Sequence record: NC_048195.1
Direction: 5' to 3' (one strand)
From: Escherichia phage vB_EcoM_WFC
Length of the DNA stretch: 64,000 nucleotides
The position numbers were made by a program, and so were the translations under genes. The notes beneath the pieces are model-generated. The model saw only the letters and a list, made by a program, of their open reading frames with translations. It searched no databases and was not told where the DNA came from. Shown here piece by piece: positions 1 to 62,862 of this stretch (position 1 is its first letter; the number at the start of each line of letters is the position of its first letter).

Positions 1-68
1 ATTTTAAAAACATTTATATTAATTTTTTTCATATCCTCATACTTATGTTAATTTATATATTTAACGTA

Positions 69-131
69 TTATCCGTAAGATATAAGTAAAAACAAAGACT
101 TGCGGCAATACGGATGATACGTCATGATACG
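69..131. repeat. Iteron-like repeat units (TTATCCGTA; ACGGATGATACG-TCATGATACG) in AT-rich region
   Basis: Read directly: attatccgtaag at 69-80 and atacggatgatacgtcatgatacg at 108-131; same unit family recurs at 15969-16234. Confidence 0.5.
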
Positions 132-335
132 CTTCGACCAGCCAGCAGCGGCTAAGTCATTGATTTGCATAACAAGCGGCAAAAGGGATGGATTTCTTTT
201 ATACGTATCAAACAGTACACCACGCACCACGGTCCGCAATCCACGCAGCATTATGATTTGTGTACTTTTATAGCCATAATGAACATCAATCTGCACTTGA
301 ATATAATGTCCATCCATTGTATAATTCACACTATT

Positions 336-1543
336 AATTTGCACTATGGGATTTTGCACTATGAGTCAAGATTATGTAGCGATGCCTGAAGACTTTGAAG
401 ACCCGCGATTCGCAGAGCACAATCAGGCTTTATTCGATGAGTTCATTGACCTTGTTATTCAGGGCCATGACATGCGCGCAGCTTTTGCACTAGTATTTGG
501 AATGGAAGTTGCAACGGATAACTACACTGGCCAGCGAATCCTTTGCACGCAACGCAATCCATACTACAAGATGCGCTTCAAAAAGCGTATGGAAGAGATG
601 CCACTCAAGGATTTGTGGAGCGTAAAAGGTGCAATTCACAATTTGGTCAAGCTTGTGCGTGATCCAGAAGTCGCGGCGTCAGCCAAGCTTAATGCTATTC
701 GTGAACTGAATATCATCTACGGCATCACGATGATTGATGAAAACGGCAATAGTAAAATGGGCCGTTCCATGGACGATTTCTACAAGGATTTCGGAGAGGC
801 GGCCAAAGAAGGCGAGCAATTTTCCCGCCACTAGCCAATTTGCACTATAAAACGGCCCTAGAACACATTTTCTCCACTTCTAGGGCCATCGGTAATACGA
901 CGGGGAAGGTTGCAACCATAAACGCGTTAGAAAGTGTATTATTATAAGTCATCTTTTAGTCACTTTACGTAACAATTTACGACCTTCAACCGTCCAATCG
1001 AACGACTCCACCAGCAGATTCGCACTATAACCTAAGACGATGCGCCCTTTCTCGTTATCGACCCGCCAACAAGTCTCGAATAGCATTCGATTTGCACTAT
1101 TAACTATTGCCGCAACTCGCGTAGGATAAGCGCAATTTGCACTATGGTCGTAAAGGGATAAGGTGCGACCACTTCCGATGGACAACGTAGCGATGAGAAT
1201 AAGCGTATTCATAAGCCACCAATTTGCACTATGAAAAGCGACCCCGAAGGGCCGCCATTCGATTAGATAATCTGGAAGGTATAGGACTTGTTGCCGAACT
1301 CGAAGTTCAAGCGTCCAGCTTCTTTAAGCTTCATGCGGAAGCGAATGTGCTTGCTATCCGGTAAGCCCAGCGCGGCGAACGCTACGCGGACCGATTTGAA
1401 CTCGCCTACACCCTCGACCATAACGCCGTTACGGGTAAGACGCTTTTGCGCCACTTCCTTATTATCCCAACTTTTTGCAATGCCTTCGCTATTCGAACGG
1501 CGATGGGAAGGAGTTCCATTTTGCACTACGCAATTTGCACTAT
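336..1543. repeat. Dispersed 12-bp motif AATTTGCACTAT (about 9 copies incl. variants)
   Basis: Copies read at 336-347, 351-362, 837-848, 1018-1028 (ATTCGCACTAT), 1089-1100, 1134-1145, 1221-1232, 1518-1529 (..CACTAC), 1532-1543; two tandem pairs spaced about 14-15 bp. Confidence 0.6.
346..834 (+). CDS. Hypothetical protein (162 aa)
   Basis: Six-frame ORF; alternative in-frame ATG at 361; both starts sit directly after a GCACTAT motif copy. Confidence 0.5.
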   Translation: MGFCTMSQDYVAMPEDFEDPRFAEHNQALFDEFIDLVIQGHDMRAAFALVFGMEVATDNYTGQRILCTQRNPYYKMRFKKRMEEMPLKDLWSVKGAIHNLVKLVRDPEVAASAKLNAIRELNIIYGITMIDENGNSKMGRSMDDFYKDFGEAAKEGEQFSRH

Positions 1544-1889
1544 CGTTTAAACCGCTCTTAACGAAGGCTTCATACTCTTCGTCGGTCATCGCGTCGAGTT
1601 CTTCCTGCGTCGGCTCGGCCTTTTTAACGACCGCACGCGCCTTATGCGTTTTTACATCGCTGGACACTTCCTCGCGAGACTTCGCGTCGGGGATGGGCGA
1701 TTCGTTGGACGGCTCATCGAGCGCGTTTAAGGACTCGATTAACGCTATTACGCGAGTCTCGGCGGTCCGGCGGTCCGCAAATTTTTTAATCGGCTTCGAA
1801 CCGGAATTTGCATTATAAAATGCAACGAGGTCGGCGGTCTTAGTTGCGATAACGTCGCCGCTAGTCGAGAAACGATTTAAGCTAACCAT
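1263..1889 (-). CDS. Hypothetical protein (208 aa)
   Basis: Long ORF with protein-like composition; lies in CG-dinucleotide-rich island with distinct codon usage. Confidence 0.5.
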   Translation of the reverse strand: MVSLNRFSTSGDVIATKTADLVAFYNANSGSKPIKKFADRRTAETRVIALIESLNALDEPSNESPIPDAKSREEVSSDVKTHKARAVVKKAEPTQEELDAMTDEEYEAFVKSGLNDSANCVVQNGTPSHRRSNSEGIAKSWDNKEVAQKRLTRNGVMVEGVGEFKSVRVAFAALGLPDSKHIRFRMKLKEAGRLNFEFGNKSYTFQII

Positions 1890-1969
1890 AATGAACTCCT
1901 ATTTGTTAGGGCGCTAGGCGCGAAAGAATTTTATTAAAGCGCCGCGCACGACGCTCTAAAAATCCTCTC

Positions 1970-2284
1970 TTACTCTTCGTCATCTTCGATTAATTCGAGG
2001 GCGAAGGCGTAAGCTTTGCTATCGTAATTAACTAAAACGGCGAGTTCGAACTCGTTAATAAACGCCGTTTTACCGCATAAATTTAATTCCGCATCGACTT
2101 CGAAGAATCCGTTTTCGTCGCGCTCTAAGCGAGAAGCAGCGAGTTGCTCGATTACCGTCGCGTCGTTAATTTCTTCGCCTAAGCGAACGCCGGAGAATTT
2201 CGCGAGAATTTCGCCGTAAGTAAGCGTAACGCCCTGGACTTCGGCGGTTGCGTTTTCGAGGGTAAAGCGGGTAACGATAGCCAT
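1970..2284 (-). CDS. Hypothetical acidic protein (104 aa)
   Basis: ORF ending in acidic tail EDDEE; same island composition. Confidence 0.5.
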   Translation of the reverse strand: MAIVTRFTLENATAEVQGVTLTYGEILAKFSGVRLGEEINDATVIEQLAASRLERDENGFFEVDAELNLCGKTAFINEFELAVLVNYDSKAYAFALELIEDDEE

Positions 2285-2424
2285 AATAAACTCCTAGTTG
2301 GGAGAGGCGTTAACGACCTATTCGTTAACTCATCCCGTCCCGATATGAGTACATTATAATATAGTGTAGAAAAAAGTAAAGCACTTTTTCGATAAAAATG
2401 CGATAAATTATTTTATCTTTTTTC

Positions 2425-2452
2425 TTTACTTCTTCGTACACTCGCGTATACT
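2425..2452 (+). promoter_or_regulatory. sigma70-like promoter (TTTACT-N16-TATACT) with conserved leader
   Basis: -35 TTTACT 2425-2430, -10 TATACT 2447-2452; 19-bp block CTTTACTTCTTCGTACACT identical to copy at 2823-2841. Confidence 0.4.
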
Positions 2453-2508
2453 TGTTTATATCGAGACGGGCGATGGCCCTTTCTTCTACTAGCATCGGGA
2501 GCTTTATT

Positions 2509-2811
2509 ATGACTACTTTAATCTCTTCCATCCTTACTTACGACGAAGACCGCTTAACCGTTCGCTCTCTTATCGCCGCCGTTAACGCGGAACTAGAATC
2601 TAGCGCCATTAAGGTCCGCGCGGTCGCCTTCATCGGCCTTTCCTTCGACGATATGAAGTATGCCGAACGTAGCGCCATCCGCTTCGCGAAGACCGACGAC
2701 GAAGCCGTTACCCTTATCGAGACGGTTACGCCGCGCGGCGAAGCGTTAATTATCGTCGAGTATATCGACGTAGAAGGCGATAAATCTTATAAACATTTTA
2801 TCGCAGAATAA
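2509..2811 (+). CDS. Hypothetical protein (100 aa)
   Basis: ATG at 2509 preceded by GGGAG RBS; track ORF begins at an upstream TTG (2452). Confidence 0.55.
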   Translation: MTTLISSILTYDEDRLTVRSLIAAVNAELESSAIKVRAVAFIGLSFDDMKYAERSAIRFAKTDDEAVTLIETVTPRGEALIIVEYIDVEGDKSYKHFIAE

Positions 2812-2823
2812 CGAAAAAAGTGC

Positions 2824-2852
2824 TTTACTTCTTCGTACACTAAGACTATAAT
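2824..2852 (+). promoter_or_regulatory. sigma70-like promoter (TTTACT-N17-TATAAT) with conserved leader
   Basis: -35 TTTACT 2824-2829, -10 TATAAT 2847-2852; shares TTTATATCGAGA-GGG leader element with promoter at 2425. Confidence 0.45.
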
Positions 2853-2919
2853 GTTTTATATCGAGAGGGGATGAGGTAGCGAATAGGTCGCTACCCTCCC
2901 GACTAACTAGGAGAATATT

Positions 2920-3210
2920 ATGATTACTTTAGCCGCTATCCGTTCCGCTCGCGTCGAAACTTCCGAAAACTCTAACGTATTTGGCGAAAAACTTAAAAAC
3001 GTTTATCTTTTTAACGTAGATGCGACTATCGAGGAGCTTCATAGTCCTATCGATTTTAGCGAATTTACGGAACTCGAAGAGGAAGATATTTCTACCTTCC
3101 GCGTTACTATCGAAGGCAAGGTTTATTTTGCTACGGAGTTCGGCGGCGAATATCTCGCGGTATCCGAAGGCGAAGGCCGTTACTCTTTCTTTAAAATCGT
3201 TTCCTTATAA
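2920..3210 (+). CDS. Hypothetical protein (96 aa)
   Basis: ATG at 2920 preceded by AGGAGA RBS. Confidence 0.55.
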   Translation: MITLAAIRSARVETSENSNVFGEKLKNVYLFNVDATIEELHSPIDFSEFTELEEEDISTFRVTIEGKVYFATEFGGEYLAVSEGEGRYSFFKIVSL

Positions 3211-3229
3211 TACCCATCCGTTACTAATA

Positions 3230-3255
3230 GGCCGCGCTTAGTCGCGGCTTTTCTT
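3230..3255 (+). terminator. Rho-independent terminator
   Basis: GCCGCG stem / CGCGGC with 6-nt loop followed by TTTTCTT, directly after stop at 3210. Confidence 0.6.
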
Positions 3256-3375
3256 CGTCCCTATCTCGATGCGCTTCTCCGCGAAAACTCCTTTATCCTT
3301 CCCTTCGTCGTCGCATAATCTTCGTCGAGATGCGCCTTAGTTCGCATAACAGGTATTACGTTAAATGGAGAACAT

Positions 3376-3448
3376 CGCGTAAGTCGTTGTTTTATATAGA
3401 CACCTATATCGGACCGTTAGCGAGGGTCGCGTAAGTCGTTGTTTTATA
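3376..3448. repeat. 21-bp direct repeat CGCGTAAGTCGTTGTTTTATA x2
   Basis: Identical copies read at 3376-3396 and 3428-3448 in noncoding region. Confidence 0.6.
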
Positions 3449-3573
3449 AAGGCGCAAAACTTTCCCTTCGTTCCGAACTAAAACGAGGAATATGCCGACC
3501 CTTCGCCCGAAAATAGTACGCATGCGATATTACCGACATCTAGAATAATCCCTCCCGATATTATTACGCGCTC

Positions 3574-3636
3574 AATCATTAGCTTTCGAATCATTATGCT
3601 GCATACTATTATGCGCCAAATCATTAGCCTTCGAAT
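3574..3636. repeat. 18-bp direct repeat AATCATTAGC(T/C)TTCGAAT x2
   Basis: Copies at 3574-3591 and 3619-3636 (1 mismatch); TGTAACG also duplicated at 3637-3660. Confidence 0.55.
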
Positions 3637-3909
3637 TGTAACGCTGGAAACTGTAACGTCGATTGATTATTGCGTTCGTGTGGTTTTTAGGACATGGGTC
3701 TTTTGGTGCGTTTTGCTACTTGATGGAATTTGCAGTACACTAATCAAAATACGACACATTTGGTCCACTAACTTTTCAAAGAAAAAGTCCTAGACAGTAC
3801 CGTACTATTTTGTACCCACAGGAAATTTGCCGTACACTCCTGCGCGGCAGGCAAAATAAAGGGGCCGCACTAAGCGACCCACGATTCACGGTTAAATCAG
3901 CAACACCCA

Positions 3910-4713: not shown

Positions 4714-5181
4714 TCAATATTTTAATAAGAAAGCACCCAACCAACTTTCCTCAATCTCGCGGCCAGTAGCCACACGGTCGGTCTTGGCTATGGGTCTGGA
4801 TTCGCCGCAGGGCAATCCGTCCTGTAGTTGTGTACTATTGCCAATTCTCACCAGAACCTTTCCATCAGGGTCGATATAAGCGCGACAACCCATGATTTCG
4901 AGTCGTTGTAGACACTGGCGAATCGTTTTCAGCTTCTCACCGGACCGGATAGAGCGCGGTCGCGACCGCTGACCGTTCTTATTCACTGTACGCTTGAAGA
5001 CCGGAATATCATTGGTGCGTTGCGGCTTGGGTCGGTAATAAGCCTCTTCGCCAGGAGTCGCACCTGGCGTCAATTCGCGCTTGAGCGCCTTTTCAATATC
5101 AATGATCATAATTATGCCGCAGCAGCGTGAATTATTGCGTAAACAATTCCTAACAGGGCGACAACGCAAATCGTGCCCCAA
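4714..5181 (-). CDS. Hypothetical basic protein
   Basis: Track ORF; real start may be internal ATG at 5109; start uncertain. Confidence 0.4.
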   Translation of the reverse strand: MGHDLRCRPVRNCLRNNSRCCGIIMIIDIEKALKRELTPGATPGEEAYYRPKPQRTNDIPVFKRTVNKNGQRSRPRSIRSGEKLKTIRQCLQRLEIMGCRAYIDPDGKVLVRIGNSTQLQDGLPCGESRPIAKTDRVATGREIEESWLGAFLLKY

Positions 5182-5214
5182 AATGCAAAGCGCCGTGCCT
5201 CTTTATCCATTTAT

Positions 5215-5490
5215 TTATCCCCCAACGTCCATGAAATTAAACACTAATTTTGCCATGTCATCTTGTGAAAAGACACTGTAGTGTTTAGGCAAATTGCTTT
5301 CTGACAATACCTTCTGGGCTTCTTCTGCTGTCTCAAATAAAGGAATGCACCAATTAACTGCATCGCCAGATTCATTGCTATCAACTTGCTTTAAGAAAAC
5401 CAAGCGGTTATCTTCAGGATCAATACCGCAGATGACATATTTAGGCAAGGCCTTTGCTTTCTGAGCTTTATCAATATCTTCAAATTTCAT
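5215..5490 (-). CDS. Hypothetical protein
   Basis: Start refined to ATG at 5490 with GAGGTG RBS. Confidence 0.5.
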   Translation of the reverse strand: MKFEDIDKAQKAKALPKYVICGIDPEDNRLVFLKQVDSNESGDAVNWCIPLFETAEEAQKVLSESNLPKHYSVFSQDDMAKLVFNFMDVGG

Positions 5491-5544
5491 AAAACACCTC
5501 ACTTGTTAACGTATAATGAGTATAACTTAATTGCGCATAAAGTA

Positions 5545-5564
5545 AAGGCGCTTTTCAGCGCCTT
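5545..5564 (-). terminator. Hairpin downstream of tail fiber gene (putative terminator)
   Basis: AAGGCGC/GCGCCTT stem with 6-nt loop; weak T-tract on minus strand. Confidence 0.35.
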
Positions 5565-5571
5565 GAGTGAA

Positions 5572-7929
5572 TTATTTCGCTGCTTTCAGCGCGACTATCT
5601 CTGCCTCTAGGGATTCAACTTTTTTCATCAACTCCTGCACCACGTGCATAGTATCCAAAAGCATAGGCGTTGTGTCAAGTTCCTTTTGTTCAACAATCTC
5701 TCCTGGATCACTGCCAACATATTTACGCGTCTTAACATATAAAGGCTCAACAACCTCTGCTTGCTGTGCAATCACGCCATGCCGAACTCGATTTTGTTCG
5801 TCATTGTCATAAATGAACTCTACAAATTCCAGACCTTGGATATTAGAGTATGACTTTTCAACGCCAACAGGAGCGATGCCGTGTTTTACACGTGAGTCAG
5901 AAGTTCCATTTTTCGTATAGCTGAAGTTTCCATAATCCGTTGATCCATATATTTGACCATCAATGTCAAAAAAGTAACGGCAGAATTTTCCATTGTCTCC
6001 ACCGATAACTACACAGGCTATGCCAAATGCGTCATTACCTGGAATATACATGTGATATCCAACCTTTGTTGGGTATCCATTAGGTCTGGTGCCGCCGATA
6101 GAATATCCGCGCACCAGAAGATCTGAGCCGCTCGAAATGGCCACCCTGTCCATTCCGTTAGTTGTCAAGGTTGATGGATTGGCGTCAGTTATTCCATTCC
6201 ATGTGCCTAAAGGCGTATACATGCGGAATGGGTTGGTCTTCCCTGACTGTCGGAAGTCAACTGTGCCATCCTCATAGAATTTATAAGCGTGTTTTGAAGC
6301 GCCTTCTGACTCTATGACGGCGGCGTTAGAAGAACCCCATAAAGAACTTGAGTACAGACGTGCAAATTGTGATAGTGATGGGTTGCTGTATTTTGACTCT
6401 ACTTTGCCGCCGATAACCACAGTATCTACTGCTGGCGCGCTTGAATCTGCGTTTATCACACTCCACTGCGTATTTGCGGCAACAAATCCACCCGATGCAC
6501 GAATCACCCAAACGCCAACGAAGTTACGGCCCATGATTTCATCTGTTGCCGCGCCATAGATTGGACTTGAGCGTGATGCATCAATGTTGATTGTATTTAA
6601 ACGTCCCTCTACTGCGCCACTTCCAACGGGGATTGTGTCTCCAGCGCCTTGAGGATACAAATCGTTGTTTGTGTAAAAAGCACCTCGGACGGCTGTGCCA
6701 AAGATTTGCGCATAAGTACCTGCCGATACGCCTGCAGCTGAACCTGTTATGTTTGGTGCAGCGGATTCAAATATTTGGCCGTTCGCAGTCGAGTTGCCGC
6801 CGTCGCCACGCCCGTACAGCGCCCGTACAGAACCTGTTTGCACACCGTTCAGGTCTGGTACACGGAAAGTGGTTGTGCCGTTGCCCAAAGAATACTTTGC
6901 ACGTTTGAACTTATCAGCAAGCCAATCAGCATCTGCGATGGGAGAAAGCATTTGTGCATATGCCCAAAGTTCAGGCCAATCGGCACGGTTTAATAGTTGA
7001 CCGTCTGCAACGACTTCATACGGCTGGATGTATGAGCGACTATTTCGAAGGTGAAAATCACCTACGCCATAGTTCATAACACCGTTCATGCTTGGGCCGA
7101 CAGTGCCAGTGTTGACTAAGTTTTCCACCCAACGCTTTGTTGCGGCATCATAATCATTTACTGGGTCACCAGCCAGCGGCGTTGAGCCTTGTGGTCGGAT
7201 GTTAAGCCACGCCTGAGCATTGTCAGCAGAGCCAGTACCGCCCATAGAAGTAGGGACAATATTTTGATCAGCAACCGTTCCGAATCCAAAAGCAGACTTC
7301 ATGCCCTGAATGGTTGTTTGGCCTGTGCCACCATTTGCCACTGGGATGGTGCTTTGCGTACTGTACATTTGCACCCAGTCCGACCATAATGATGATCCGG
7401 CATTATATAACCTTTGGTATATGGCATTAATCCAATAAGGGGTGTATCTTTGAACGCAACTTTCTCCTGCAACGCCAGTTTTATAAACTTCAAGAATCCC
7501 GGCTTGCGCAACTGGATAATTCAAGGCTGTCGATGCCCCAGCATTGGCTGATTGGTGATATTGCCCGAACCAACTTCCAGTAAGCGCATTGAGATTTATT
7601 CCGTTAGGAATTTCTCCAAAATTACGCACGGTGTTGGTCAAGGTTGCAGCAGTAGTTCGAATGGAAAGCATGTCGCCAGCCGCCCATGCGCGCGCTGCAG
7701 TTCCTTCCTGTGCACGCTGCACGGTAAGGACGTTTCCGACCACGGCTGTTACGGTGACGATTTCGAATTGTAAGCCTGTTGCAGCGTCGACGATTGTCGC
7801 CACTACGCGCTCGTTTGCGCCCAAGGTCGGAAAGCCCGACCCTGAACGAATTGTGATGGTGGTGTCTGAAGTCGTGGTTGGCTGAGCCAGTGCGACCTCA
7901 AAGTTGTTTTTGAATATTAGCCTTGGCAT
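5572..7929 (-). CDS. Tail fiber protein with tail-collar-like motif and C-terminal intramolecular chaperone-like domain
   Basis: 785 aa; motifs TFRVPDLNG, YDAATKRWVE; Gly/Thr/Asn-rich repeats; C-terminal coiled coil ...VESLEAEIVALKAAK typical of S74-type chaperone; GAGGA RBS. Confidence 0.7.
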   Translation of the reverse strand: MPRLIFKNNFEVALAQPTTTSDTTITIRSGSGFPTLGANERVVATIVDAATGLQFEIVTVTAVVGNVLTVQRAQEGTAARAWAAGDMLSIRTTAATLTNTVRNFGEIPNGINLNALTGSWFGQYHQSANAGASTALNYPVAQAGILEVYKTGVAGESCVQRYTPYWINAIYQRLYNAGSSLWSDWVQMYSTQSTIPVANGGTGQTTIQGMKSAFGFGTVADQNIVPTSMGGTGSADNAQAWLNIRPQGSTPLAGDPVNDYDAATKRWVENLVNTGTVGPSMNGVMNYGVGDFHLRNSRSYIQPYEVVADGQLLNRADWPELWAYAQMLSPIADADWLADKFKRAKYSLGNGTTTFRVPDLNGVQTGSVRALYGRGDGGNSTANGQIFESAAPNITGSAAGVSAGTYAQIFGTAVRGAFYTNNDLYPQGAGDTIPVGSGAVEGRLNTINIDASRSSPIYGAATDEIMGRNFVGVWVIRASGGFVAANTQWSVINADSSAPAVDTVVIGGKVESKYSNPSLSQFARLYSSSLWGSSNAAVIESEGASKHAYKFYEDGTVDFRQSGKTNPFRMYTPLGTWNGITDANPSTLTTNGMDRVAISSGSDLLVRGYSIGGTRPNGYPTKVGYHMYIPGNDAFGIACVVIGGDNGKFCRYFFDIDGQIYGSTDYGNFSYTKNGTSDSRVKHGIAPVGVEKSYSNIQGLEFVEFIYDNDEQNRVRHGVIAQQAEVVEPLYVKTRKYVGSDPGEIVEQKELDTTPMLLDTMHVVQELMKKVESLEAEIVALKAAK

Positions 7930-7967
7930 TTTACGGTCCTCGTTTTGTCGACAACCGTATTATAACC

Positions 7968-8309
7968 TTAATTTCTTTTGAGAGGAATATGACGATTGCT
8001 GCCATTATTTGGTTTAATAATGAGCATAAATATGATCAAAAAGATGATGGCTGATATACTTAATTCAATCAGCGCGGCCTGAGAAATGGATTGGTCTTCG
8101 TGATATTGCTTTTGCATTTCGGCCTTCTTTTGAGCGCAAACTTCAGGCGATATATAATCACCTTTTGAATTGCCATAATAGATTTCGCCGTTTTCTGAAA
8201 TAAGGCGTCCGCAAATATCTGTTTCGGCTTTTGCGCTGGACATCATAATTACAGTTCCAATGATTGCCGCGATGGTCCAGATTAGCAGTTGTGATAAGGT
8301 GTTATTCAT
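7968..8309 (-). CDS. Membrane protein (N-terminal signal/TM and C-terminal TM)
   Basis: 113 aa; hydrophobic segments at both ends. Confidence 0.5.
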   Translation of the reverse strand: MNNTLSQLLIWTIAAIIGTVIMMSSAKAETDICGRLISENGEIYYGNSKGDYISPEVCAQKKAEMQKQYHEDQSISQAALIELSISAIIFLIIFMLIIKPNNGSNRHIPLKRN

Positions 8310-9166: not shown

Positions 9167-9343
9167 ATTACCTCCGGTTTTGAGTTAATATGATTATAAC
9201 GCAGAGTCTCAGAAAGGCAAACTTTTTGTGAATTTTAATCAAAAAAATGGCCAGAAAAAATCTGGCCGAAAGATCACCCTTTATCCACTACTAAGCTGGA
9301 ATCATAATTTTACTTGATATAGCTTGTACAAGCAAACTATAAT

Positions 9344-10804
9344 ATGAATAAAATATTAACACATAATTGGAAATTCATGTACCAGTTGAATCCTGCTTTA
9401 AAAGAAGTCTGGAAGACAAAAGCGCGATACAAAGTAATATACGGCGGTCGTGCATCTTCCAAATCGCATGATGCCGCTGGTTTTGCTATTTATTTGGCGG
9501 CAAACTTCAAATTAAAATTCCTTTGCGTTCGACAATTCCAGAACAAGATTTCTGAATCTGTATATACTCTATTAAAAGATAAAATAGAGATTTCTGATTT
9601 TAAAGATGAGTTCAATTTATTAAAGAACTCTATCGAGCATAAAAGAACTAAATCTGAATTTCTATTTTACGGTATCGCACGTAACGTTGATGAAATTAAA
9701 TCAACGGAAGGTGTTGATGTTCTTTGGCTGGAAGAAGCGCACGCACTTACTGAAGAACAGTGGGACATTATTGAGCCGACAATCCGTAAAGAAGGGTCAG
9801 AAATATGGATCATCTTTAACCCTGATGAAGAGGCCGATTTCGTCTACCAAAACTTTGTTATGCGACCGCCGAAGAATGCCATAGTTAAAAAGATAAACTG
9901 GCAAGACAACCCATTCTTGTCGCAAACAATGCTGGATGTTATCGCAGGCATGTACGAGCGCGACCCGAAAAAGGCAGAGCACGTTTATGGCGGCGTGCCG
10001 AAGACTGGCGGCGATAAATCTGTAATCAACCGTGCATTCGTTAAGGCCGCTCTTAATCTCCACAAACACCCTACGCTGGGCTGGAGTTTGTCAGGGTCTA
10101 ACCGTATAGGCTTTGACGTAGCGGACGATGGCGACGACCTTAACGCCACTGCATTCGTCACAGGAAACGTATTGCGCGGCATCAAGACGTGGGAAGGTCT
10201 GGAAGATGAATTGTTGAAATCGGCAAGCGGAGTTTGGAAAGATGCGCTTACATTTGGCGCTTCTATAACTTATGACGCCATCGGTGTCGGCGCTTTTGCT
10301 GGTTCAAAATTTGATGAACTAAACGAGTATGCAATACATGAAAATCCATCATTTCCAAGAATCGAATTTAATGCGTTCAACGCGCAAGGGTCTGTTGATG
10401 ATCCTGATGACGTTTTTCTTGAGCTACCACACGTTGAAATACTCAATAAAGACCATTTCGCAAACATAAAAGCGCAAAAGTGGACTGAAATTGCAGAGAG
10501 ATTCAGAAAGACATACGAATATGCAACTGGGCAAGCCGTATATCCGACTGATGAATTGATTTCAATCGACACCGATGGTATACCGGAACTTGGGATTCCA
10601 GCTTGGACTACTGAAGAGATTGAGACGTTTCTTTTTGAGATGTCAGCGCCGCGCAAAGATACGTCTGTTCTTGGCAAGTTCAAAGTTGAATCTAAAAAGG
10701 ATATGGCAAAGCGTGGAGTCAAATCACCTAACAAAGCGGACGCAGCAATCATGGCATTGATGAAACCAATCGTTGCAGCATCCGGCTTCTTCTCTAACCT
10801 TTAA
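9344..10804 (+). CDS. Terminase large subunit
   Basis: 486 aa; Walker A-like YGGRASSKS, LWLEEAH, IIFNPDEE nuclease-domain-like motifs; precedes portal. Confidence 0.85.
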   Translation: MNKILTHNWKFMYQLNPALKEVWKTKARYKVIYGGRASSKSHDAAGFAIYLAANFKLKFLCVRQFQNKISESVYTLLKDKIEISDFKDEFNLLKNSIEHKRTKSEFLFYGIARNVDEIKSTEGVDVLWLEEAHALTEEQWDIIEPTIRKEGSEIWIIFNPDEEADFVYQNFVMRPPKNAIVKKINWQDNPFLSQTMLDVIAGMYERDPKKAEHVYGGVPKTGGDKSVINRAFVKAALNLHKHPTLGWSLSGSNRIGFDVADDGDDLNATAFVTGNVLRGIKTWEGLEDELLKSASGVWKDALTFGASITYDAIGVGAFAGSKFDELNEYAIHENPSFPRIEFNAFNAQGSVDDPDDVFLELPHVEILNKDHFANIKAQKWTEIAERFRKTYEYATGQAVYPTDELISIDTDGIPELGIPAWTTEEIETFLFEMSAPRKDTSVLGKFKVESKKDMAKRGVKSPNKADAAIMALMKPIVAASGFFSNL

Positions 10805-13999: not shown

Positions 14000-14851
14000 A
14001 TGGCTTTTAAAGCTTCGAAAAAACGTGAACGCCGCTCACCCGATAGAATCGGGCGCGGCAGTCCGATAATCCCATCAAACGCTATTGCGATGGCCTACCG
14101 TCGTGAGATGAAAGGTCTTTGCTATGCGATGATTGATGACTATCAGGCAGGCATTTCAGAATGGCTTGACAAGAAGCAGGTGCAGAAGTTTTTTGCGCAA
14201 GACTCTGCTGATTCGACATTCCAGACCCTTATGAAACGGCTGCAACTGAAATGGGCAAAGGCGTTTGCACGTGTTGGGTCGAAGATTGCCGCTGATTTTA
14301 TCAAATCGGTCGAAAAGGGTGCCACTTCTGCTACATTCGCAAGCCTTAAGTCCGCAGGCATAGAAGCGCCAAAGGCCACATATAACAAATTCGTTGAGAA
14401 CACTCTTAGAACAAGCGAGAAGTTTAACACGACTCTAGTGACTAAGGTCGGCGAGGATATTCACAACAGAGTGTACGAAGCAGTCATGCTTTCGCTGACT
14501 TCTCCCGACCCAGCCCAGCAAGGCACGTCAGGCATTCAGGCGGCATTGCGAAACGTAAAACACTTCTCTGCAAAGAGAGTCGACTTGATCGCTAAAGACC
14601 AGACAAGCAAATTGTATTGCGTTCTAAGCGATGAAAGGATGCGCCAGAATGGAGTCGAAGAATTTGAGTGGGCGCACTCAGGAGCAGGAAAGGAGCCGCG
14701 AATCTCTCATGAACACGTCGACGGAATGAGATTCAAACTTGATGACAAGCGCCTATGGGAAGTTGGCGGCGAATTGAAGTTCAAAAAGGGTGACATCGGT
14801 CCTCCTGGATGGGCAATACACTGCAAGTGCAGAAAAATACCAATCATTTGA
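14000..14851 (+). CDS. Minor head / head morphogenesis protein (Mu F / SPP1 gp7-like)
   Basis: Follows portal; C-terminal ...EWAHSGAGKEPRISHEHVDGMRF... resembles MuF-like domain; start overlaps portal stop. Confidence 0.6.
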   Translation: MAFKASKKRERRSPDRIGRGSPIIPSNAIAMAYRREMKGLCYAMIDDYQAGISEWLDKKQVQKFFAQDSADSTFQTLMKRLQLKWAKAFARVGSKIAADFIKSVEKGATSATFASLKSAGIEAPKATYNKFVENTLRTSEKFNTTLVTKVGEDIHNRVYEAVMLSLTSPDPAQQGTSGIQAALRNVKHFSAKRVDLIAKDQTSKLYCVLSDERMRQNGVEEFEWAHSGAGKEPRISHEHVDGMRFKLDDKRLWEVGGELKFKKGDIGPPGWAIHCKCRKIPII

Positions 14852-14858
14852 GGTCATT

Positions 14859-15779
14859 ATGACGATACCAATCAGCACGTTTCCTCTATCTGGACAAACG
14901 CCAGTATTGCCTGCTGTATATGCTAACGGTTTGGCGATTGTTTCAGAATTTACATCCGATAAAAACCTGATTGTTCCATTGAGTCCGCCATTGGCGTCTG
15001 GATACAATTCAGTTGGTCAATTCTTTATGATCGGTAATGATGGCGATTCTACCAGCAAGCCGAATCTGACACTTTCAGTTCCCAAAATGAACATAACAGA
15101 CGTGCAGACTGGTTTAACTGCATCTACAATCACCATCGCTTTTGGAGAAGCAGTGATTATAGGAATGGAGTCTGGAGGGTCAAAGAATGCTGTCGCCGTT
15201 AAAGTGGTCAAATCAAGCGGCAACCAATACACGTTACCAGCGGCAACGGCTTCTGTTCTCGGCGGCGTCAAAATAGGAAGCGGAATAAGCGTCGCAGGTG
15301 ACGGTACAATTAGCGTTACTCAATACTCATTGCCGATTGCGTCAGCATCTACTTTAGGCGGCGTAAAGGTCGGTACAACTCTATCAATTGATGGTTCCGG
15401 TGTGCTTAACGCAGCGGAAAGCACCGTCCAGAATGCCACGAACAGTGTTAGCAATCCTCCAACCACTTTGGTTAATCTGGCGACCTTAAACCTTCCTGCA
15501 GGAAAGTGGCTTGTGACGGCAAGTCAGTTGACTGTCGCGACAGCAGGAATTCAAGCGAATACCGGAATTACAGCCAAATTGTCAACAAGCGATTCAGATA
15601 TTACGGATGATGCATTTACGATGTCAGCTGGCATTCGGGCTGCAGGTCGTTTCGGCGGCAATATTCCAACAAAGATAATCACTCTTGCCGCGCCTGGCAA
15701 CGTGTATCTAAACTATCAATGCACAGAGGCGTTGACATCTACCGTTTACGGACAGATCACCGCAATCAAGCTGAACTAA
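14859..15779 (+). CDS. Fiber-repeat protein (possible head fiber/decoration)
   Basis: Internal repeats TASVLGGVKIGSG... and ASTLGGVKVGTT... resembling phage fiber repeats; GAGG RBS. Confidence 0.5.
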   Translation: MTIPISTFPLSGQTPVLPAVYANGLAIVSEFTSDKNLIVPLSPPLASGYNSVGQFFMIGNDGDSTSKPNLTLSVPKMNITDVQTGLTASTITIAFGEAVIIGMESGGSKNAVAVKVVKSSGNQYTLPAATASVLGGVKIGSGISVAGDGTISVTQYSLPIASASTLGGVKVGTTLSIDGSGVLNAAESTVQNATNSVSNPPTTLVNLATLNLPAGKWLVTASQLTVATAGIQANTGITAKLSTSDSDITDDAFTMSAGIRAAGRFGGNIPTKIITLAAPGNVYLNYQCTEALTSTVYGQITAIKLN

Positions 15780-30705: not shown

Positions 30706-31434
30706 ATGATGGCAGAAAAGTTAACCCAACTTACAAGCCCCAACCAAACTGACAAATCAAGTATGTTTGCCGCGCTGCAGGGAATGCTGGACCGTGGCAA
30801 GTATACCACTGACGGCATGATTCCTGCACAAGTAATATCTTATGACCGCAAACAGAATTTAGCAGTCATAAAGCCTGTTATTCATTTCGTAAGTCTTGAT
30901 GATAGACCAGTGGAGCGTCAACCACTGGTGTCAATTCCTGTATTGGCAATCGGCGGCGGCGGCTTCGTAATCAACTTTCCTCTGAAAGAGGGTGATTTGG
31001 GCTGGATATTCGCTGGCGACCGCGAGTTGTCGACATTCCTTGAAGAATTGAAGCCGACCGCGCCTACCAATGGCCGCGCGAAAACTTTCGCTGATGGACT
31101 GTTCATACCGGATGTATTTAGAAAATACACCATAAGCGGAGAGGATGCAGGCTCAATGGTAATCCAGTCACTCAGCGGCGCTGTCCGCATTGCATTAAGT
31201 GATGACTCGATAAACATAACTGCATCGGCTGGAGTAAATGTGAAAACACCAATAACCACTATCGACCAACAATTGATAGTTAATGGAAAGGCAACGTTCA
31301 ATGGTGGTATAGAAGGGAAAGAAGGAACGACGGCAACGCTTCCGACTGGCACAACAATCGGCGGCACAAATGTATCCACTCACGGTCACATAGGTAACGG
31401 ACCTGGAAACAGAACTGGGGATATGATAGAATGA
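30706..31434 (+). CDS. Baseplate central spike protein (gpV-like, putative)
   Basis: Gly-rich core; C-terminal STHGHIGNGPG His motif reminiscent of spike apex. Confidence 0.5.
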   Translation: MMAEKLTQLTSPNQTDKSSMFAALQGMLDRGKYTTDGMIPAQVISYDRKQNLAVIKPVIHFVSLDDRPVERQPLVSIPVLAIGGGGFVINFPLKEGDLGWIFAGDRELSTFLEELKPTAPTNGRAKTFADGLFIPDVFRKYTISGEDAGSMVIQSLSGAVRIALSDDSINITASAGVNVKTPITTIDQQLIVNGKATFNGGIEGKEGTTATLPTGTTIGGTNVSTHGHIGNGPGNRTGDMIE

Positions 31435-32708: not shown

Positions 32709-32981
32709 ATGCAAAAGTTTGACACAAACCTGTTGCAAAACCTTAAGTGGATGCAGAACAATGCGCCAAACATCACATCTTTGGTGCAAAAGAAAAGTGA
32801 CTGGTATGAAAGATACCAAGATCAGTTTTGGACTGACTGGTACAATAACATTTTTAACATTGACACTTGTGATGCAATGGGCATTTATATTTGGTGCGAC
32901 ATTCTTTGCATACCAAGAGACTTTGTGGACTTAAGCAATTATGAGCACAACTGGGCGTTTGGACCGACGCGACAACTTTGA
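32709..32981 (+). CDS. Baseplate/tail fiber-associated protein, N-terminal segment (possibly frameshifted gene)
   Basis: 90-aa ORF overlapping next ORF in +1 frame. Confidence 0.35.
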   Translation: MQKFDTNLLQNLKWMQNNAPNITSLVQKKSDWYERYQDQFWTDWYNNIFNIDTCDAMGIYIWCDILCIPRDFVDLSNYEHNWAFGPTRQL

Positions 32982-33219
32982 AGGTGCGGACAACATCGGC
33001 GGCAACTTCTTTGGTGCTGGCGGGAAGGTTGTAAAGAATATCGAAGAAGCACGCATACTTCTTAAGCTTCGTTATCTGACGCTCACAAGTGATGGCCGCA
33101 TCGAAAGTATCAACCGCATGCTTAAGTGGATTTTCAACCGTGGAGAGGCTTGGGATTACTCTTCATCACGCTACGCATACGTGGACCGACAACACTCAAG
33201 GCGCAGTATCTTCATCTGA
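32941..33219 (+). CDS. Baseplate/tail fiber-associated protein, second segment (possibly frameshifted gene)
   Basis: 92-aa ORF overlapping both neighbours in different frames. Confidence 0.3.
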   Translation: MSTTGRLDRRDNFEGADNIGGNFFGAGGKVVKNIEEARILLKLRYLTLTSDGRIESINRMLKWIFNRGEAWDYSSSRYAYVDRQHSRRSIFI

Positions 33220-35446
33220 ATCAACAAATGGATCATTCCTTCTATACGACTGGCAGGGGTCAACTGAGATTCAGCACGATTATAAGCAGATACTTTTAAG
33301 CCATGGCAACAACGCCGGACTGACTATCAGCGGAGTGTCAGGCACCGTGTCACGGATGGCGCATCCAGATTGGTACTCATGGGGGAATGGTTCCGGCACA
33401 GGTCTTGTCGGCGGCGACACAAGACAGTATGGCGGCCCTGATTACTATGGGCAGTTGTGTGGCGATTACCCAGGTGAGGCAATAGAGAATTTTGCCAACG
33501 CAGTAAGGGTCGTCAAGACGGCTTCAAGCGGTGAGCCTGTGTATTCTTTGGCCAATAATCCAAGCGCACAGTCAATTGCCCTTCCTTCGCAGGCTGGCGT
33601 TAACGTTTGCTATAGCTTCTACATAAAGGTGCTTTCTGAAAACGTCGCTTCTGTTTCTGTTACAGAGAATAGTGATGCATCGAGTAATGGAAAGCTGTTT
33701 GACCCCGTCACTGGCCAGTTCAACTTGGACCCGTCATTGAGCTATTTCATCAAAGGTAAATTCGATGGAGTAAGAAGGGAATCAAACCGTGGTGGCATAA
33801 AAGCAATTGGCGGCGATTGGTATCGAATCTGGATTGTAGAGCAGACGGCAACCGCTGCTTCTGGAGTAAGTACCAGCTTTTCAATAGAGTTGAAGGCGAC
33901 TGCCGCTGGATCAACTCAAACTCGTGAATTGCCTGAAGGGTCTGATGCTCTTTTGTTTGGATACTCGATTTGCGTCTGCGACCCTGTTCAGAATCCAAAT
34001 GGACCTGAGCCTTATTTTTATGGAACGCAAAACCCTCCTTCTGACGGAACAGCAATCCTGTCTGTAACGGCGGGAACGCTCAATAACATCTCCTGTGCAA
34101 ACGGACCGCTGACGACAAGAAACGGTGTAGTTGGCGAGTCATTCATGCAACCTGGCTCATCACTTGCATACTCTGGCTCAATCGGTGGCTACCCGTACCC
34201 AGGGAACGCCACGCTGATTGCAGAGACTGATGGAATCAGACGCTCATGGAACGTTAGCAGGCTGGATGGAGTACCGCCGCCGCCGACCGCCGACTATTAC
34301 ATGGAATACGTCATCGGACCTTATTTCGCCAACAACCTGTCTGACAACTTTAAGACGCTAGTTGGCGACAGGAATGAAGGATTCTTGCCAGCAAATGCCG
34401 GAATACGCTGGCAGCTTTACCAAGAAGTCGCAGACTTATCTGATATCGATTTGACTGTCAACGACATAACAGACACGCGCGTAGGATTTGAAACGGAAGG
34501 TGTTGCGTGGATTAACACTGACGGTATCATTAGAGTTGGCGGCATCAACGAGTGGCCGCTGAACAACTTCAACGGTGTGATACGCCAGCTTGAATCTTTG
34601 AAAGGTGTAAACCAGGTCGTCGACGGCGCACTTGTCAACGACTATTCAATCTCAAAAGCATCAAGAGATGACTTTGGTCGTGAAATACCACGCGCGGCAA
34701 TCACTAACTATTGGCGCTACACACAGCCAAACGACGGTACATCTTTTGGCAATATCATTGAGGATGGCGCAAACACTGTCACAGCTACGCCAATCAGCGG
34801 TGTGCCCAACCAGTTCCCATCATTCAAGCTTTCCGCTACAATAGGGACTGTGCCAGCGTCCGGTTATGCACGCGCTGTACTTGCTACTAAATACACTGGC
34901 ACCCTGACTGGCCCTTTGTCATTTATCGCAATAGTCAAAAACAACACGGTTAACGGTCAAAAACTTTTTGTAACTGTACCGGATGGGATGGGTGGCTATA
35001 TCCCTAAATTCTACAACATAGGCGCAGGTGATTTGCAACGTATCGAAATTGACCTTGCCGCTGAGATTGTTGAAGGCGCTACCTGGGATGGATCAACAGG
35101 CGGCATCAGCATCGGTTTGATATCAGGGAAAGACTTGCCGACCGAAGTTGGTACGACTCTTGAACTTGATATTTTAAGCTTGATGCTTGTGTCTGGTAGT
35201 ACGATGAATGCGCTTGCAATTTCAACAAGCGAAGATTTCGCAAAGAAAACTGCGACTTCTATATACATCAAAAACCCAGGATCACTTGCCACTGGAGTTC
35301 AACTGATTGCTTCTAATGGTGATGTTGTAGCAACAGTAAACTTTCCGAGAAGTGCTGCTGGTGGTTATGTTTCAAGCATGAACATAACTGACTTAACTGG
35401 TGATTGGGCAACAACCCTTTTGTCAAAAATTAAATACATCGTGTAG
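33089..35446 (+). CDS. Tail fiber / baseplate wedge protein
   Basis: 785 aa, Gly/Ser/Thr/Asn-rich; tail-gene context; N-terminus overlaps upstream ORF by 130 nt. Confidence 0.5.
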   Translation: MMAASKVSTACLSGFSTVERLGITLHHATHTWTDNTQGAVSSSESTNGSFLLYDWQGSTEIQHDYKQILLSHGNNAGLTISGVSGTVSRMAHPDWYSWGNGSGTGLVGGDTRQYGGPDYYGQLCGDYPGEAIENFANAVRVVKTASSGEPVYSLANNPSAQSIALPSQAGVNVCYSFYIKVLSENVASVSVTENSDASSNGKLFDPVTGQFNLDPSLSYFIKGKFDGVRRESNRGGIKAIGGDWYRIWIVEQTATAASGVSTSFSIELKATAAGSTQTRELPEGSDALLFGYSICVCDPVQNPNGPEPYFYGTQNPPSDGTAILSVTAGTLNNISCANGPLTTRNGVVGESFMQPGSSLAYSGSIGGYPYPGNATLIAETDGIRRSWNVSRLDGVPPPPTADYYMEYVIGPYFANNLSDNFKTLVGDRNEGFLPANAGIRWQLYQEVADLSDIDLTVNDITDTRVGFETEGVAWINTDGIIRVGGINEWPLNNFNGVIRQLESLKGVNQVVDGALVNDYSISKASRDDFGREIPRAAITNYWRYTQPNDGTSFGNIIEDGANTVTATPISGVPNQFPSFKLSATIGTVPASGYARAVLATKYTGTLTGPLSFIAIVKNNTVNGQKLFVTVPDGMGGYIPKFYNIGAGDLQRIEIDLAAEIVEGATWDGSTGGISIGLISGKDLPTEVGTTLELDILSLMLVSGSTMNALAISTSEDFAKKTATSIYIKNPGSLATGVQLIASNGDVVATVNFPRSAAGGYVSSMNITDLTGDWATTLLSKIKYIV

Positions 35447-35456
35447 AGGAACGGCA

Positions 35457-39828: not shown

Positions 39829-39830
39829 AA

Positions 39831-62297: not shown

Positions 62298-62533
62298 TGG
62301 AAGATTATATTAACGCGATGTATATGGCATTCTATGTCGTGCAACTTCCCAATGGCGCGGTATTTTATGGCGAGTATACCTTTGACGTTCAATACGACGT
62401 TTCAGAGCGTACAGTGTTGACAAGGGAGTTGATTGCGGACCTTAAGGACGACATCAAACGCGTCGCGCGGCAGCAGTTCAATTTGGATGACACAGTCATC
62501 GTTCGAATTACCGGAATAACAGAGGTGCAGTGA
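62294..62533 (+). CDS. Hypothetical protein (79 aa)
   Basis: ORF, 4-nt overlap. Confidence 0.4.
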   Translation: MMEDYINAMYMAFYVVQLPNGAVFYGEYTFDVQYDVSERTVLTRELIADLKDDIKRVARQQFNLDDTVIVRITGITEVQ

Positions 62534-62862
62534 TGACCCGTGATCAGATACTCGCCGCGCATGAGCGTGAGAAGGTGAAAGAGATTTGTAAAAGGCACAA
62601 ATCATTTGCTGACTCTTATGTGTTCTTAAAGTCTTGCATCAAACAAAACGCAAGGATGGATAACACTGTATTGACATTCAACCTTTTGTCTAACGGAGCA
62701 AAGCTTGATGCGATATGCGGGTGCAGAATTGCCAGCATGACGTTTGAACGAGGTGCTCACAAAGACTCTTTCTTCTATCAATTCTCCCATCGGACGGGTG
62801 ATACAAAGATAACAAGGACGCGGCACGAGATAGAGATTGACCTGCTCCACTATGTAAAATGA
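62530..62862 (+). CDS. Hypothetical protein (110 aa)
   Basis: ORF, 4-nt overlap. Confidence 0.45.
   Translation: MMTRDQILAAHEREKVKEICKRHKSFADSYVFLKSCIKQNARMDNTVLTFNLLSNGAKLDAICGCRIASMTFERGAHKDSFFYQFSHRTGDTKITRTRHEIEIDLLHYVK

Follow-up and report, generated by a model that had tools for sequence, protein, structure and literature searches.

A gene for a long tail fibre-like protein is found on the minus strand of the 64,000-nucleotide stretch of Escherichia phage vB_EcoM_WFC DNA analysed here in full (NC_048195.1; hereafter the window), well away from the tail genes, and the question raised by this locus is what the protein does and whether the gene is an exchangeable host-range cassette, as the initial annotation proposed. 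We conclude, with a probability of roughly 85%, that its product is the variable side fibre by which a Wifcevirus-type myophage sets its host range and that it belongs to the 'T-shaped' kind of tail fibre with two receptor-binding domains (RBDs), which has been described for the BASEL phages Bas98-101 (Humolli et al., 2025; PMC11990801). Infection by these phages depends completely on the O16 O-antigen (PMC11990801). The architecture of the fibre, its O-antigen dependence and the horizontal spread of its domains were all published in 2025 (PMC11990801), so that the locus opens no new question; the only new element is the mix of swapped segments in this particular allele.

The gene and its genomic setting

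The window is Wifcevirus-like myophage DNA that is 96% identical to that of Bas98. The fibre reading frame (Table 1) is intact from ATG to TAA and encodes 785 aa, the chance of that many open codons being (61/64)^785 or approximately 4e-17, and a good ribosome-binding site (GAGGA) is located 7 nt upstream of the start. A separate, oppositely oriented fibre gene, as originally recognised, is thus present, and its distance from the main fibre genes was also correctly perceived: it lies 25-27 kb from the plus-strand tail module, which comprises baseplate J (31431-32702), a large structural gene ending at 35446, with an apparent 2-nt frameshift near position 32968, a conserved second fibre (35400-37241) and the endolysin (37250-37894). 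The locus is orthologous and syntenic in all 9 Wifcevirus loci examined, where it is found outside the tail module and divergent from the terminase gene in the Wifcevirus backbone. The fibre gene is surrounded by small early-looking genes and is encoded on the strand opposite to the structural operon.

Both flanks of the gene are conserved. The upstream flank is 98-99% identical across all relatives (DNA comparison, 7901-8000) and could act as a left homology arm for exchange; the TATAAT-like hexamer within it is a putative promoter element. The terminator-like hairpin directly 3' of the stop codon lies in a flank (5501-5600) that is 90-98% conserved genus-wide. The flanking genes had been taken for small membrane-protein genes, which fits the upstream neighbour (7968..8309, 113 aa), with its signal-peptide-like N-terminus and C-terminal transmembrane segment, and the second downstream reading frame (5112..5210, 32 aa), which is hydrophobic, but not the immediate downstream neighbour (5215..5490, 91 aa), which is soluble. 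A tRNA scan of the window found none.

This setting might also suggest a non-virion early or accessory protein of the non-structural left arm, such as a decoy or a superinfection-related factor, given the small genes around the fibre gene, its opposite orientation, the sigma-70-like promoter upstream of it (9220-9193) and the adjacent gene for a predicted membrane protein. We consider this extremely improbable. The protein has a full fibre architecture, with an anchor homologous to those of virion-attached fibres, and ends in a chaperone of a type not known outside fibres, spikes and MyRF-type proteins. In particular, the orthologue vB_Eco4M-7_27 was detected by mass spectrometry in phage preparations with 34 peptides, 80% coverage and the top score, and the ECML-117 gp24 orthologue was detected as well (PMC7048862). 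These data, which bear on the virion proteomics that had been proposed as a check, indicate expression and probable, not proven, incorporation into the virion, since the preparations also held non-structural proteins, for example a DNA helicase (PMC7048862).

Table 1. Features of the fibre locus in the window (aa, residues of the fibre precursor)
Feature	Coordinates	Strand	Basis
Predicted variable receptor-binding side fibre, complete CDS	5572..7929	minus	ORF listing and translation; 785 aa precursor; stop codon 5572-5574
Upstream flank with GAGGA ribosome-binding site and TATAAT-like hexamer	7930..8000	minus	Sequence; conservation of 7901-8000
N-terminal anchor (attachment) domain, aa 1-100	7630..7929	minus	Conservation; match to 8jov_1
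Pyocin-type knob, aa 101-197 (variable part ~aa 122-197)	7339..7629	minus	phmmer, Foldseek
Conserved stem and LtfA-type, putatively gp12-like core of RBD1, aa 198-394	6748..7338	minus	Conservation; LtfA alignment
Hypervariable insert (tip) of RBD1, aa 395-470	6520..6747	minus	19 types, mean pairwise identity 37%
Conserved segment between RBD1 and RBD2, aa 471-497	6439..6519	minus	Candidate recombination joint
Predicted distal receptor-binding domain RBD2, aa 498-676	5902..6438	minus	Hypervariable, all-beta
Peptidase_S74 intramolecular chaperone (IMC), aa 677-785	5575..5901	minus	Nucleophile S677, K682 at +5, terminal helix 753-784
Putative terminator-like GC hairpin directly 3' of stop codon	5545..5564	minus	Pattern scan, sequence

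Domain architecture of the fibre

The predicted domain order, derived from sequence comparison and structural models, is anchor, knob, stem with RBD1, RBD2 and IMC. The protein matches the tail fibre family PHROG 6921 over its full length (E 3e-224). The closest described counterpart is 'Gp114' of ManiWeber/Bas99 (locus tag Bas99_0109; PMC11990801), with orthologues in WFH, CWP003, ECML-117, FEC19 and vB_Eco4M-7, which share the position, synteny, length, domain order and S74 chaperone; overall identity is 82-84% to Bas99, WFH and CWP003 and 70% to ECML-117, and the difference lies in the triple combination of modules. The T shape and the lateral placement of RBD1 are descriptions of these relatives and would apply to the present fibre by analogy.

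The anchor belongs to a single sequence type (mean identity 96%) and is 94-99% identical in all Wifcevirus orthologues. It is similar to residues 4-98 of a solved fibre (8jov_1; E 4.5e-10 with the single sequence, 9e-18 with the family profile), which tblastn identified as the fibre of the Ralstonia podophage GP4, deposited in entry 8jov as 18 chains (six trimers). The GP4 fibre (PDB 8JOV chain 1) thus shares a homologous N-terminal domain of ~95 aa and ends in an S74-type chaperone as well, but is a podovirus protein of 439 aa that has neither the knob nor an LtfA-type RBD1. A comparison between the two fibres of the present phage, aimed at a shared anchor, yielded no similarity between their sequences. 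By analogy with relatives, the anchor would attach the fibre trimer to the tail or baseplate, using a site other than that of the conserved second fibre.

Alternatively, the protein might be a distal branch whose carrier is a different fibre or an adaptor protein, like LtfB on LtfA in DT57C and Gp24 on Gp22/23 in Bas32, rather than the baseplate itself. In Tequintavirus, Nonagvirus and Kuravirus phages, the homologous distal module directly follows a proximal fibre gene and has no anchor, and in the Wifcevirus tail module a large structural protein of 912 aa (Bas98_0030 orthologue) adjoins the conserved fibre. Nevertheless, the Wifcevirus fibre possesses an N-terminal domain of its own, of ~100 aa, GP4-homologous and conserved throughout the genus, no proximal-fibre gene adjoins its locus, and direct attachment to the baseplate was predicted by Humolli et al. 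(PMC11990801), so that we regard such an indirect attachment as unlikely.

Next to the anchor is a knob homologous to those of R-type pyocin fibres. Residues 98-189 match R2-type pyocin fibres in phmmer searches (6ct8, E 2.2e-7; 6cl6, E 8e-7), the family profile matches pyocin fibre structures with an E value of 1.4e-7, and the modelled fold (pLDDT 74-86) matches 6cl6/6cl5 in Foldseek (E 3e-4). Accordingly, members of the family are named 'pyocin knob domain-containing S74 family peptidase' at NCBI. The similarity to the R-type pyocin tail fibre (PA0620/Prf15; 6CL6, 6CL5, 6CT8) is confined to the knob: the pyocin fibre terminates in a 'foot' whose folding relies on a separate chaperone rather than on an S74 domain, whereas the Wifcevirus fibre has a single knob, near its N-terminus.

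The stem and the core of RBD1 represent one sequence type, with mean identities of 95% for aa 196-300 and 82% for aa 301-400. A close alignment was obtained between residues 229-516 and residues 535-823 of DT57C LtfA (E 4e-108 for that stretch), a branched lateral tail fibre of the T5-like kind (PDB 8HQZ chain d; Golomidova 2016, Ayala 2023), and the RBD1 region is clearly homologous to that of Bas99 as well. The tail-collar-like motif noted earlier is weak when taken alone, with Pfam Collar at residues 345-362 scoring 16.6 bits (cut-off 24; E 0.0077) and hence remaining below threshold, in contrast to the very close LtfA alignment of the surrounding region. The family profile of the fibre did not match T4 gp12 in the PDB. 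In the annotation of Mansfield, SSF88874 (gp12-like/tail-collar type) is cited.

Residues 952-1073 of LtfA correspond to the chaperone. LtfA binds O-antigen, its divergent C-terminal region sets specificity in experiments, and this region has been swapped by recombination through identical flanks, with a switch in host range (PMC4728585). In 8HQZ, the LtfA segment corresponding to RBD1 lacks a resolved structure (PMC10713586). The two proteins differ in that LtfA combines a long helical shaft with an N-terminus of the T5 type, which inserts into the siphovirus LtfC collar, whereas the Wifcevirus fibre carries a different anchor and a pyocin knob and belongs to a myovirus; the RBD2 sequences are unrelated.

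The C-terminal chaperone-like domain predicted in the initial annotation is supported by Peptidase_S74 (PF13884) at residues 677-729, with a score of 32.8 bits, above the curated cut-off of 22, and precomputed assignments give the same Pfam domain to almost all of the 120 listed homologues. The pair S677/K682 occurs without exception in 68/68 homologues; in a broader alignment, K and D678 are invariant and the nucleophile is Ser in 24 sequences and Cys in 4. The spacing equals that of the experimentally defined cleavage site of T5 pb1, S1264/K1269 (PMC4690869). The fold is that of the chaperone family, in which a mixed alpha/beta domain precedes a long C-terminal helix that forms a trimeric coiled coil; in the present fibre, the helix is predicted with confidence as a 32-residue segment. 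The full-length monomer AlphaFold model (pLDDT 54.6) is usable for the knob and the chaperone and uninterpretable for the stem and RBD1; a second model, of aa 500-785, was built from a more diverse alignment and reached a pLDDT of 79.3. For the body of RBD2, searches with the latter model gave generic beta-sheets and porins and no specific fold match. R651, D655, D657 and D665, upstream of S677, are candidate oxyanion-hole residues (cf. T5 R1250/D1239, from the neighbouring chain).

Several proteins are related through the chaperone. The T5 pb1 tip with its intramolecular chaperone (4UW7/4UW8; Garcia-Doval 2015) has no significant sequence similarity to the fibre beyond the motif, and the match to its tip domain is weak; pb1 has 1396 aa and only one RBD, whose ligand is polymannose O-antigen. 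The Peptidase_S74 family also includes the chaperones of K1F endosialidase (3GW6) and of the GA-1/phi29 neck appendage (3GUD) and the ICA domain of MyRF (7DC3), in which the chaperone is preceded by a sialidase beta-propeller and stalk or by a transcription factor rather than by a fibre tip. On the paradigms of T5 pb1 and K1F endosialidase, three chains would trimerise with the chaperone coiled coil as the nucleus, and correct folding of the distal domain would be followed by self-cleavage of every chain between T676 and S677, releasing the 109-aa chaperone and leaving a mature fibre of 676 aa. RBD1 and RBD2 would bind surface glycans, most likely O-antigen, in the first, reversible step of adsorption, as in the relatives.

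An enzymatic tailspike or depolymerase, such as an endosialidase, that degrades the capsule or the O-antigen rather than just binding it appears very unlikely. The SP13 orthologue is annotated as 'endo-N-acetylneuraminidase', the Pfam family bears the name 'chaperone of endosialidase', and there is a weak Foldseek match to the Acinetobacter phage tailspike 6eu4 (E 0.07); however, the similarity to endosialidases is limited to the C-terminal chaperone (residues 677-785), and the structural matches to 3gw6 involve a construct of the chaperone only. Searches of the fibre with Pfam, PHROGs and NCBIfam detected no domain of the glycosidase, sialidase or pectate-lyase beta-helix kind, and no NCBIfam family matched it at all. 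Moreover, its nearest characterised relatives, DT57C LtfA (PMC4728585) and T5 pb1 (PMC4690869), bind without enzymatic activity, and Humolli et al. class the Wifcevirus protein as a fibre, not a tailspike (PMC11990801). The name endosialidase should be avoided for the gene, which can confidently be annotated as a receptor-binding tail fibre that carries an S74 intramolecular chaperone, with cleavage predicted at T676/S677.

Exchange of fibre modules among relatives

The comparison with related phages that had been suggested reveals a mosaic fibre in a conserved backbone. The window diverges strongly from Bas98 only at 4.5-8.5 kb, the fibre gene being the sole strongly divergent locus, and the backbone is 93-97% DNA-identical in 27 genomes, whereas the fibre protein is only 56-84% identical among relatives. 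Typing of the modules in 53 full-length orthologues at 70% identity gave 17 types of the knob, 19 of the RBD1 insert and 12 of RBD2. Quartets with all four combinations occur between these three modules, indicating free reassortment; no such quartet was found for RBD2 versus the chaperone, which are always inherited together in the 53 orthologues. The distal part of the fibre is shared with Tequintavirus, Nonagvirus and Kuravirus phages. The idea of an exchangeable host-range cassette therefore holds for three internal segments that are swapped independently, and not for the gene as a whole, whose anchor and stem are fixed, as are its two flanks.

A candidate recombination joint is the short segment between RBD1 and RBD2, with a conservation of 0.95 over aa 472-490. 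A breakpoint from ECML-117-like to WFH-like sequence is located just 3' of this segment, at ~nt 6380-6400, and in the identity profile the nearest relative switches at ~aa 516/517. The comparison indicates that host range evolves by homologous recombination at conserved joints, which are located in the flanks, in the anchor, in the stem and at aa 471-497. Such events swap the knob, the RBD1 insert and the RBD2-chaperone unit independently of each other, with partners that include other members of the genus as well as Tequintavirus, Nonagvirus and Kuravirus phages.

Whether every variable segment contributes to recognition is a separate issue. It is conceivable, if doubtful, that only one of RBD1 and RBD2 binds a receptor, the other and the knob being structural, with their variability due to hitch-hiking or to immune or defence evasion. 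Bas98-101 all require the O16 O-antigen (PMC11990801) and yet differ in their RBD2 types, the sequence of Bas100 being 21-26% identical to the type of the window and Bas99 in aa 517-670; the RBD1 inserts differ too. In DT57C, the specificity determinant is narrower than the divergent region (PMC4728585). The 12-19 types per segment and their free reassortment are, however, hard to explain without selection on each segment, and all three are surface-exposed in homologous fibres. Conversely, the fibre might be a recognition device of three modules, with the variable part of the knob as a third ligand-binding site or as an element that tunes specificity. This would account for a knob that is as diversified as the RBDs and reassorts independently of them; we nevertheless hold it to be rather unlikely. 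If it were true, each Wifcevirus fibre would be a combinatorial code of three glycan-binding units joined at fixed recombination joints, and the present allele would be a previously unsampled combination.

Two candidates for genes linked to the exchange were rejected. The distal fibre gene in IME178, BUCT632 and BRET has small ORFs beside it that are mutually related but unrelated to the 113-, 91-, 32- and 131-aa ORFs flanking the fibre in the window, which speaks against an accessory gene travelling with the cassette. The upstream membrane protein might have been a receptor blocker in the style of T5 Llp that co-varies with the RBD type, but its DNA identity is uniform, 79-93% to all relatives regardless of that type.

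With a dual-RBD side fibre as the preferred reading, the locus can be viewed as a natural map of the module exchange that a myophage fibre tolerates, with fixed joints, three swappable segments and a distal domain that must travel with its cognate chaperone. This map can be put to direct use in engineering the host range of Wifcevirus phages, whose application against E. coli O157 and Shigella has been proposed. The allele in the window combines an RBD1 insert of the type shared with the ECML-117 lineage (88% identity over aa 401-516), an RBD2-chaperone unit of the WFH/Bas99 type and a knob type shared with yet other lineages, and this combination is unique among the 53 sampled orthologues. 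The best public protein match, that of P0001, is 92% identical and differs in the knob segment only.

Domain architecture and predicted maturation of the fibre

The minus-strand fibre gene is an uninterrupted frame of 785 codons from ATG to TAA, as initially annotated, with a GAGGA ribosome-binding site 7 nt upstream of the ORF and a GC-rich hairpin (5564-5545) directly after the stop codon. The original view of its product as a tail fibre ending in a self-cleaving chaperone is confirmed as an observation and supported as an interpretation; in particular, a domain search identified a C-terminal Peptidase_S74 intramolecular chaperone above the Pfam cut-off (table).

Modules of the fibre and surrounding genes. 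Types were defined in 53 full-length orthologues with a 70% identity threshold; identity is the pairwise mean
Feature	Position	Strand	Types	Identity	Remarks
Fibre gene	5572..7929	-
Anchor (N-terminal)	aa 1-100		1	96%	94-99% identity in all orthologues
Knob (pyocin-type)	aa ~101-197		17	59%	Matches R-type pyocin fibre knobs 6ct8, 6cl6 (sequence, E about 1e-7) and by fold
RBD1, conserved stem and core	aa 198-516
Stem segment	aa 196-300		1	95%
RBD1 insert	aa 395-470		19	37%	Hypervariable
RBD2, distal	aa ~498-676		12	34%	All-beta
Peptidase_S74 chaperone	aa 677-785		9	55%	Pfam 32.8 bits, cut-off 22
32-aa ORF	after 91-aa ORF				Hydrophobic
91-aa ORF	5215-5490	-			Directly downstream of fibre; soluble
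113-aa ORF	7968..8309	-			Directly upstream of fibre; signal-peptide-like N-terminus, C-terminal transmembrane segment
Terminase	9344-10804	+
Conserved tail fibre	35400-37241	+
Endolysin	37250-37894	+

The attachment domain is the N-terminal anchor, which matches residues 4-98 of the solved tail fibre 8jov_1, identified as that of Ralstonia podophage GP4; 18 chains, or six trimers, are deposited. The docking sites of this variable fibre and of the conserved second fibre should differ. Family members are named "pyocin knob domain-containing S74 family peptidase" at NCBI. Within the first putative receptor-binding domain (RBD1), aa 229-516 align very closely with residues 535-823 of DT57C LtfA (E 4e-108), and a Pfam Collar match is below threshold; an exhaustive search recovered only a handful of clusters (50% identity) covering the second such domain, RBD2, in full.

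In a second structure model, the chaperone has pLDDT values of 85-95 and a 32-residue terminal helix. Residues S677 and K682 are invariant in all 68 homologues, and the arrangement T676-S677...K682 has the same layout as the experimentally defined T5 pb1 site T1263-S1264...K1269 (PMC4690869). If it acts like its counterparts in T5 pb1 and the K1F endosialidase, the chaperone would nucleate trimerization and folding of the distal domain, and we infer that each chain would cleave itself between T676 and S677, releasing the chaperone as a 109-aa fragment and leaving a mature chain of 676 aa. The anchor would attach the mature trimer to the tail, with two or possibly three variable surfaces facing the cell envelope.

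In a broader alignment of distant homologues, Cys replaces the chaperone's Ser nucleophile at the position of residue 677 in 4 of 28 sequences (motifs such as N-C-D-R-D-I-K), and D678 and K682 are invariant even there, pointing to a Cys-Lys version of the S74 autoprotease. The orthologue in phage SP13 (OP352608.1) is labelled "endo-N-acetylneuraminidase", apparently owing to the chaperone domain only; an endosialidase identity is unsupported, the chaperone alone being common to endosialidases.

Exchange of internal modules

By sequence comparison, the window belongs to a Wifcevirus-like E. coli/Shigella myophage. A 22-kb structural stretch shows 93-97% DNA identity to 27 sequenced phages, with the BASEL phage Bas98 on top (97.4%), and the window as a whole matches Bas98 at 96% identity across 98.5% of the window length. 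The sole strongly divergent stretch against Bas98 (4.5-8.5 kb) is centred on the fibre gene, whose product shares only 56-84% identity with Wifcevirus orthologues. Synteny is kept in each of the nine relatives examined: the divergent terminase is followed by five or six small ORFs, then by the 113-aa membrane ORF, the fibre gene and further small ORFs.

The initial annotation proposed an exchangeable host-range cassette; comparison of the locus among related phages bears out exchange of internal modules, but the whole gene is not the unit. The identity profile is mosaic: aa 1-516 follow ECML-117 (88-100%), whereas aa 517-785 follow WFH, Bas99 and CWP003 (85-96%) and are only 19-36% identical to ECML-117, the nearest relative switching in DNA near nt 6380-6400. 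All relatives share the flanks (7901-8000 and 5501-5600) at 90-99% identity. Quartets, in which two types at each of two modules occur in all four combinations, number 3 for knob and RBD1, 9 for knob and RBD2 and 12 for RBD1 and RBD2, providing evidence of reassortment. RBD2 and the chaperone form exactly 12 combinations and zero quartets among the 53 orthologues, which indicates that the distal tip travels with its own chaperone, the two being strictly co-inherited in these sequences; intimate tip-chaperone contacts in T5 pb1 fit this pattern (PMC4690869).

Homologous regions extend to other genera: in Tequintavirus (IME178, BUCT632) and Nonagvirus BRET, fibres match aa 236-785 at 64-97% identity per segment, and only aa ~301-785 are shared with Kuravirus Bas90 (53-83%). 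In all of these phages, the homologous part comes after a gene for a proximal fibre and has no anchor.

The exact protein is absent from a collection of 5.8 billion clusters. The best public match, P0001 (92% identity), is near-identical from aa 198 on and differs in the knob only (~35% identity over aa 121-190), and the way its knob, RBD1 and RBD2 types are combined is unique among the 53 sampled orthologues. The fibre represents a new allele of a type described only recently: the T-shaped Wifcevirus tail fibre with N-terminal anchor, Gp12-like RBD1, T5-like RBD2 and chaperone, in which both receptor-binding domains are highly variable and spread horizontally across morphotypes (Humolli et al., PLoS Biol 2025, PMC11990801). 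The correspondence is by locus and anchor, the T shape being the published description; the S74 profile with its catalytic pair, the chaperone fold and the knob were likewise found here. Added by the present work are the precise position of the predicted cleavage, the coordinates of modules and joints, the strict co-inheritance of RBD2 and chaperone, and the knob as a third, independently reassorting variable module. A role of the knob as a third specificity element seems unlikely. Bas99 (PQ850618.1) carries a naming mismatch, its fibre, "Gp114" in the BASEL paper, having the locus tag Bas99_0109 in GenBank.

Likely receptor and probable presence in virions

The O-antigen is the likely ligand, by analogy, because all four BASEL Wifcevirus isolates fully require the O16 O-antigen (PMC11990801), the homologous LtfA proteins of DT57C and DT571/2 recognize O22-like or O87 O-antigen via a divergent C-terminal region, and the host range of these phages was switched experimentally by recombination via identical flanks at a frequency of ~1e-4 (PMC4728585). 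Published mass spectrometry detected the orthologues vB_Eco4M-7_27 (34 peptides, 80% coverage, top score) and ECML-117 gp24 (18 peptides) in preparations that also contained some non-structural proteins (PMC7048862), which supports production of the fibre protein and makes its incorporation into virions probable rather than proven.

Gene neighbourhood and genome context

The gene was correctly described as oriented opposite to the main fibre genes and ~25 kb distant from them, since the structural module (terminase, head, sheath and baseplate genes, conserved tail fibre, then endolysin) lies on the plus strand. Of all sigma-70-like promoter matches in the scanned stretch, the two best lie in the intergenic region 9167-9343, between the fibre block and the divergent terminase: one is on the minus strand (9220-9193, 10/12), the other on the plus strand (9314-9343, 11/12), where it extends exactly to the terminase ATG. 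A terminator-like hairpin (9267-9249) is also present. The fibre may therefore be co-transcribed with early-looking small genes, driven by a promoter of host type. For phage Mansfield (7103-8289; roughly 1-3700 in the window), PhageTerm predicts a direct terminal repeat of 3.7 kb whose end is ~1.8 kb from the fibre gene, placing the locus near a physical genome end in this genus.

Small membrane-protein genes had been proposed on both flanks, which holds for the 113-aa ORF but not for the adjacent 91-aa ORF, which is soluble; the 32-aa ORF beyond the latter is hydrophobic. The 113-aa ORF, annotated likewise in vB_Eco4M-7, has no Pfam or PHROG family, is kept across the genus (~79-93% DNA identity) and shows no co-variation with the receptor-binding types among genus relatives. 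The 91-aa ORF is an orthologue of vB_Eco4M-7_26 (64% identity), found in phage preparations by mass spectrometry (5 peptides, 62% coverage); ECML-117 has an unrelated 69-aa ORF in its place, likewise detected. The 91-aa product may be a small protein of the virion or one associated with the fibre. The small ORFs do not travel with the exchanged fibre part between Wifcevirus and Tequintavirus/Nonagvirus. No tRNA or tmRNA genes occur in the 64-kb window.

Between a baseplate wedge gene and the conserved tail fibre lies the orthologue of Bas98_0030 (32709..35446, plus strand), a 912-aa protein corresponding to the mass-spectrometry-detected 98.6-kDa structural protein vB_Eco4M-7_62. A CG repeat at ~32960-32975 is 2 nt shorter in the window (GACGCGCGAC in Bas98, GACGCGAC here), and the resulting frameshift, either a sequencing error or a genuine tail-protein mutation, leaves 88 aa before a stop, with 33089..35446 as the longest remaining ORF. 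Away from the fibre locus, secondary variable spots with minor dips against Bas98 (86-89% identity, against 96-97% in the remainder of the genome) are found at 14001-15000, 39501-40000 and 50501-51000, and a further one, with 75% coverage, at 62501-63000.
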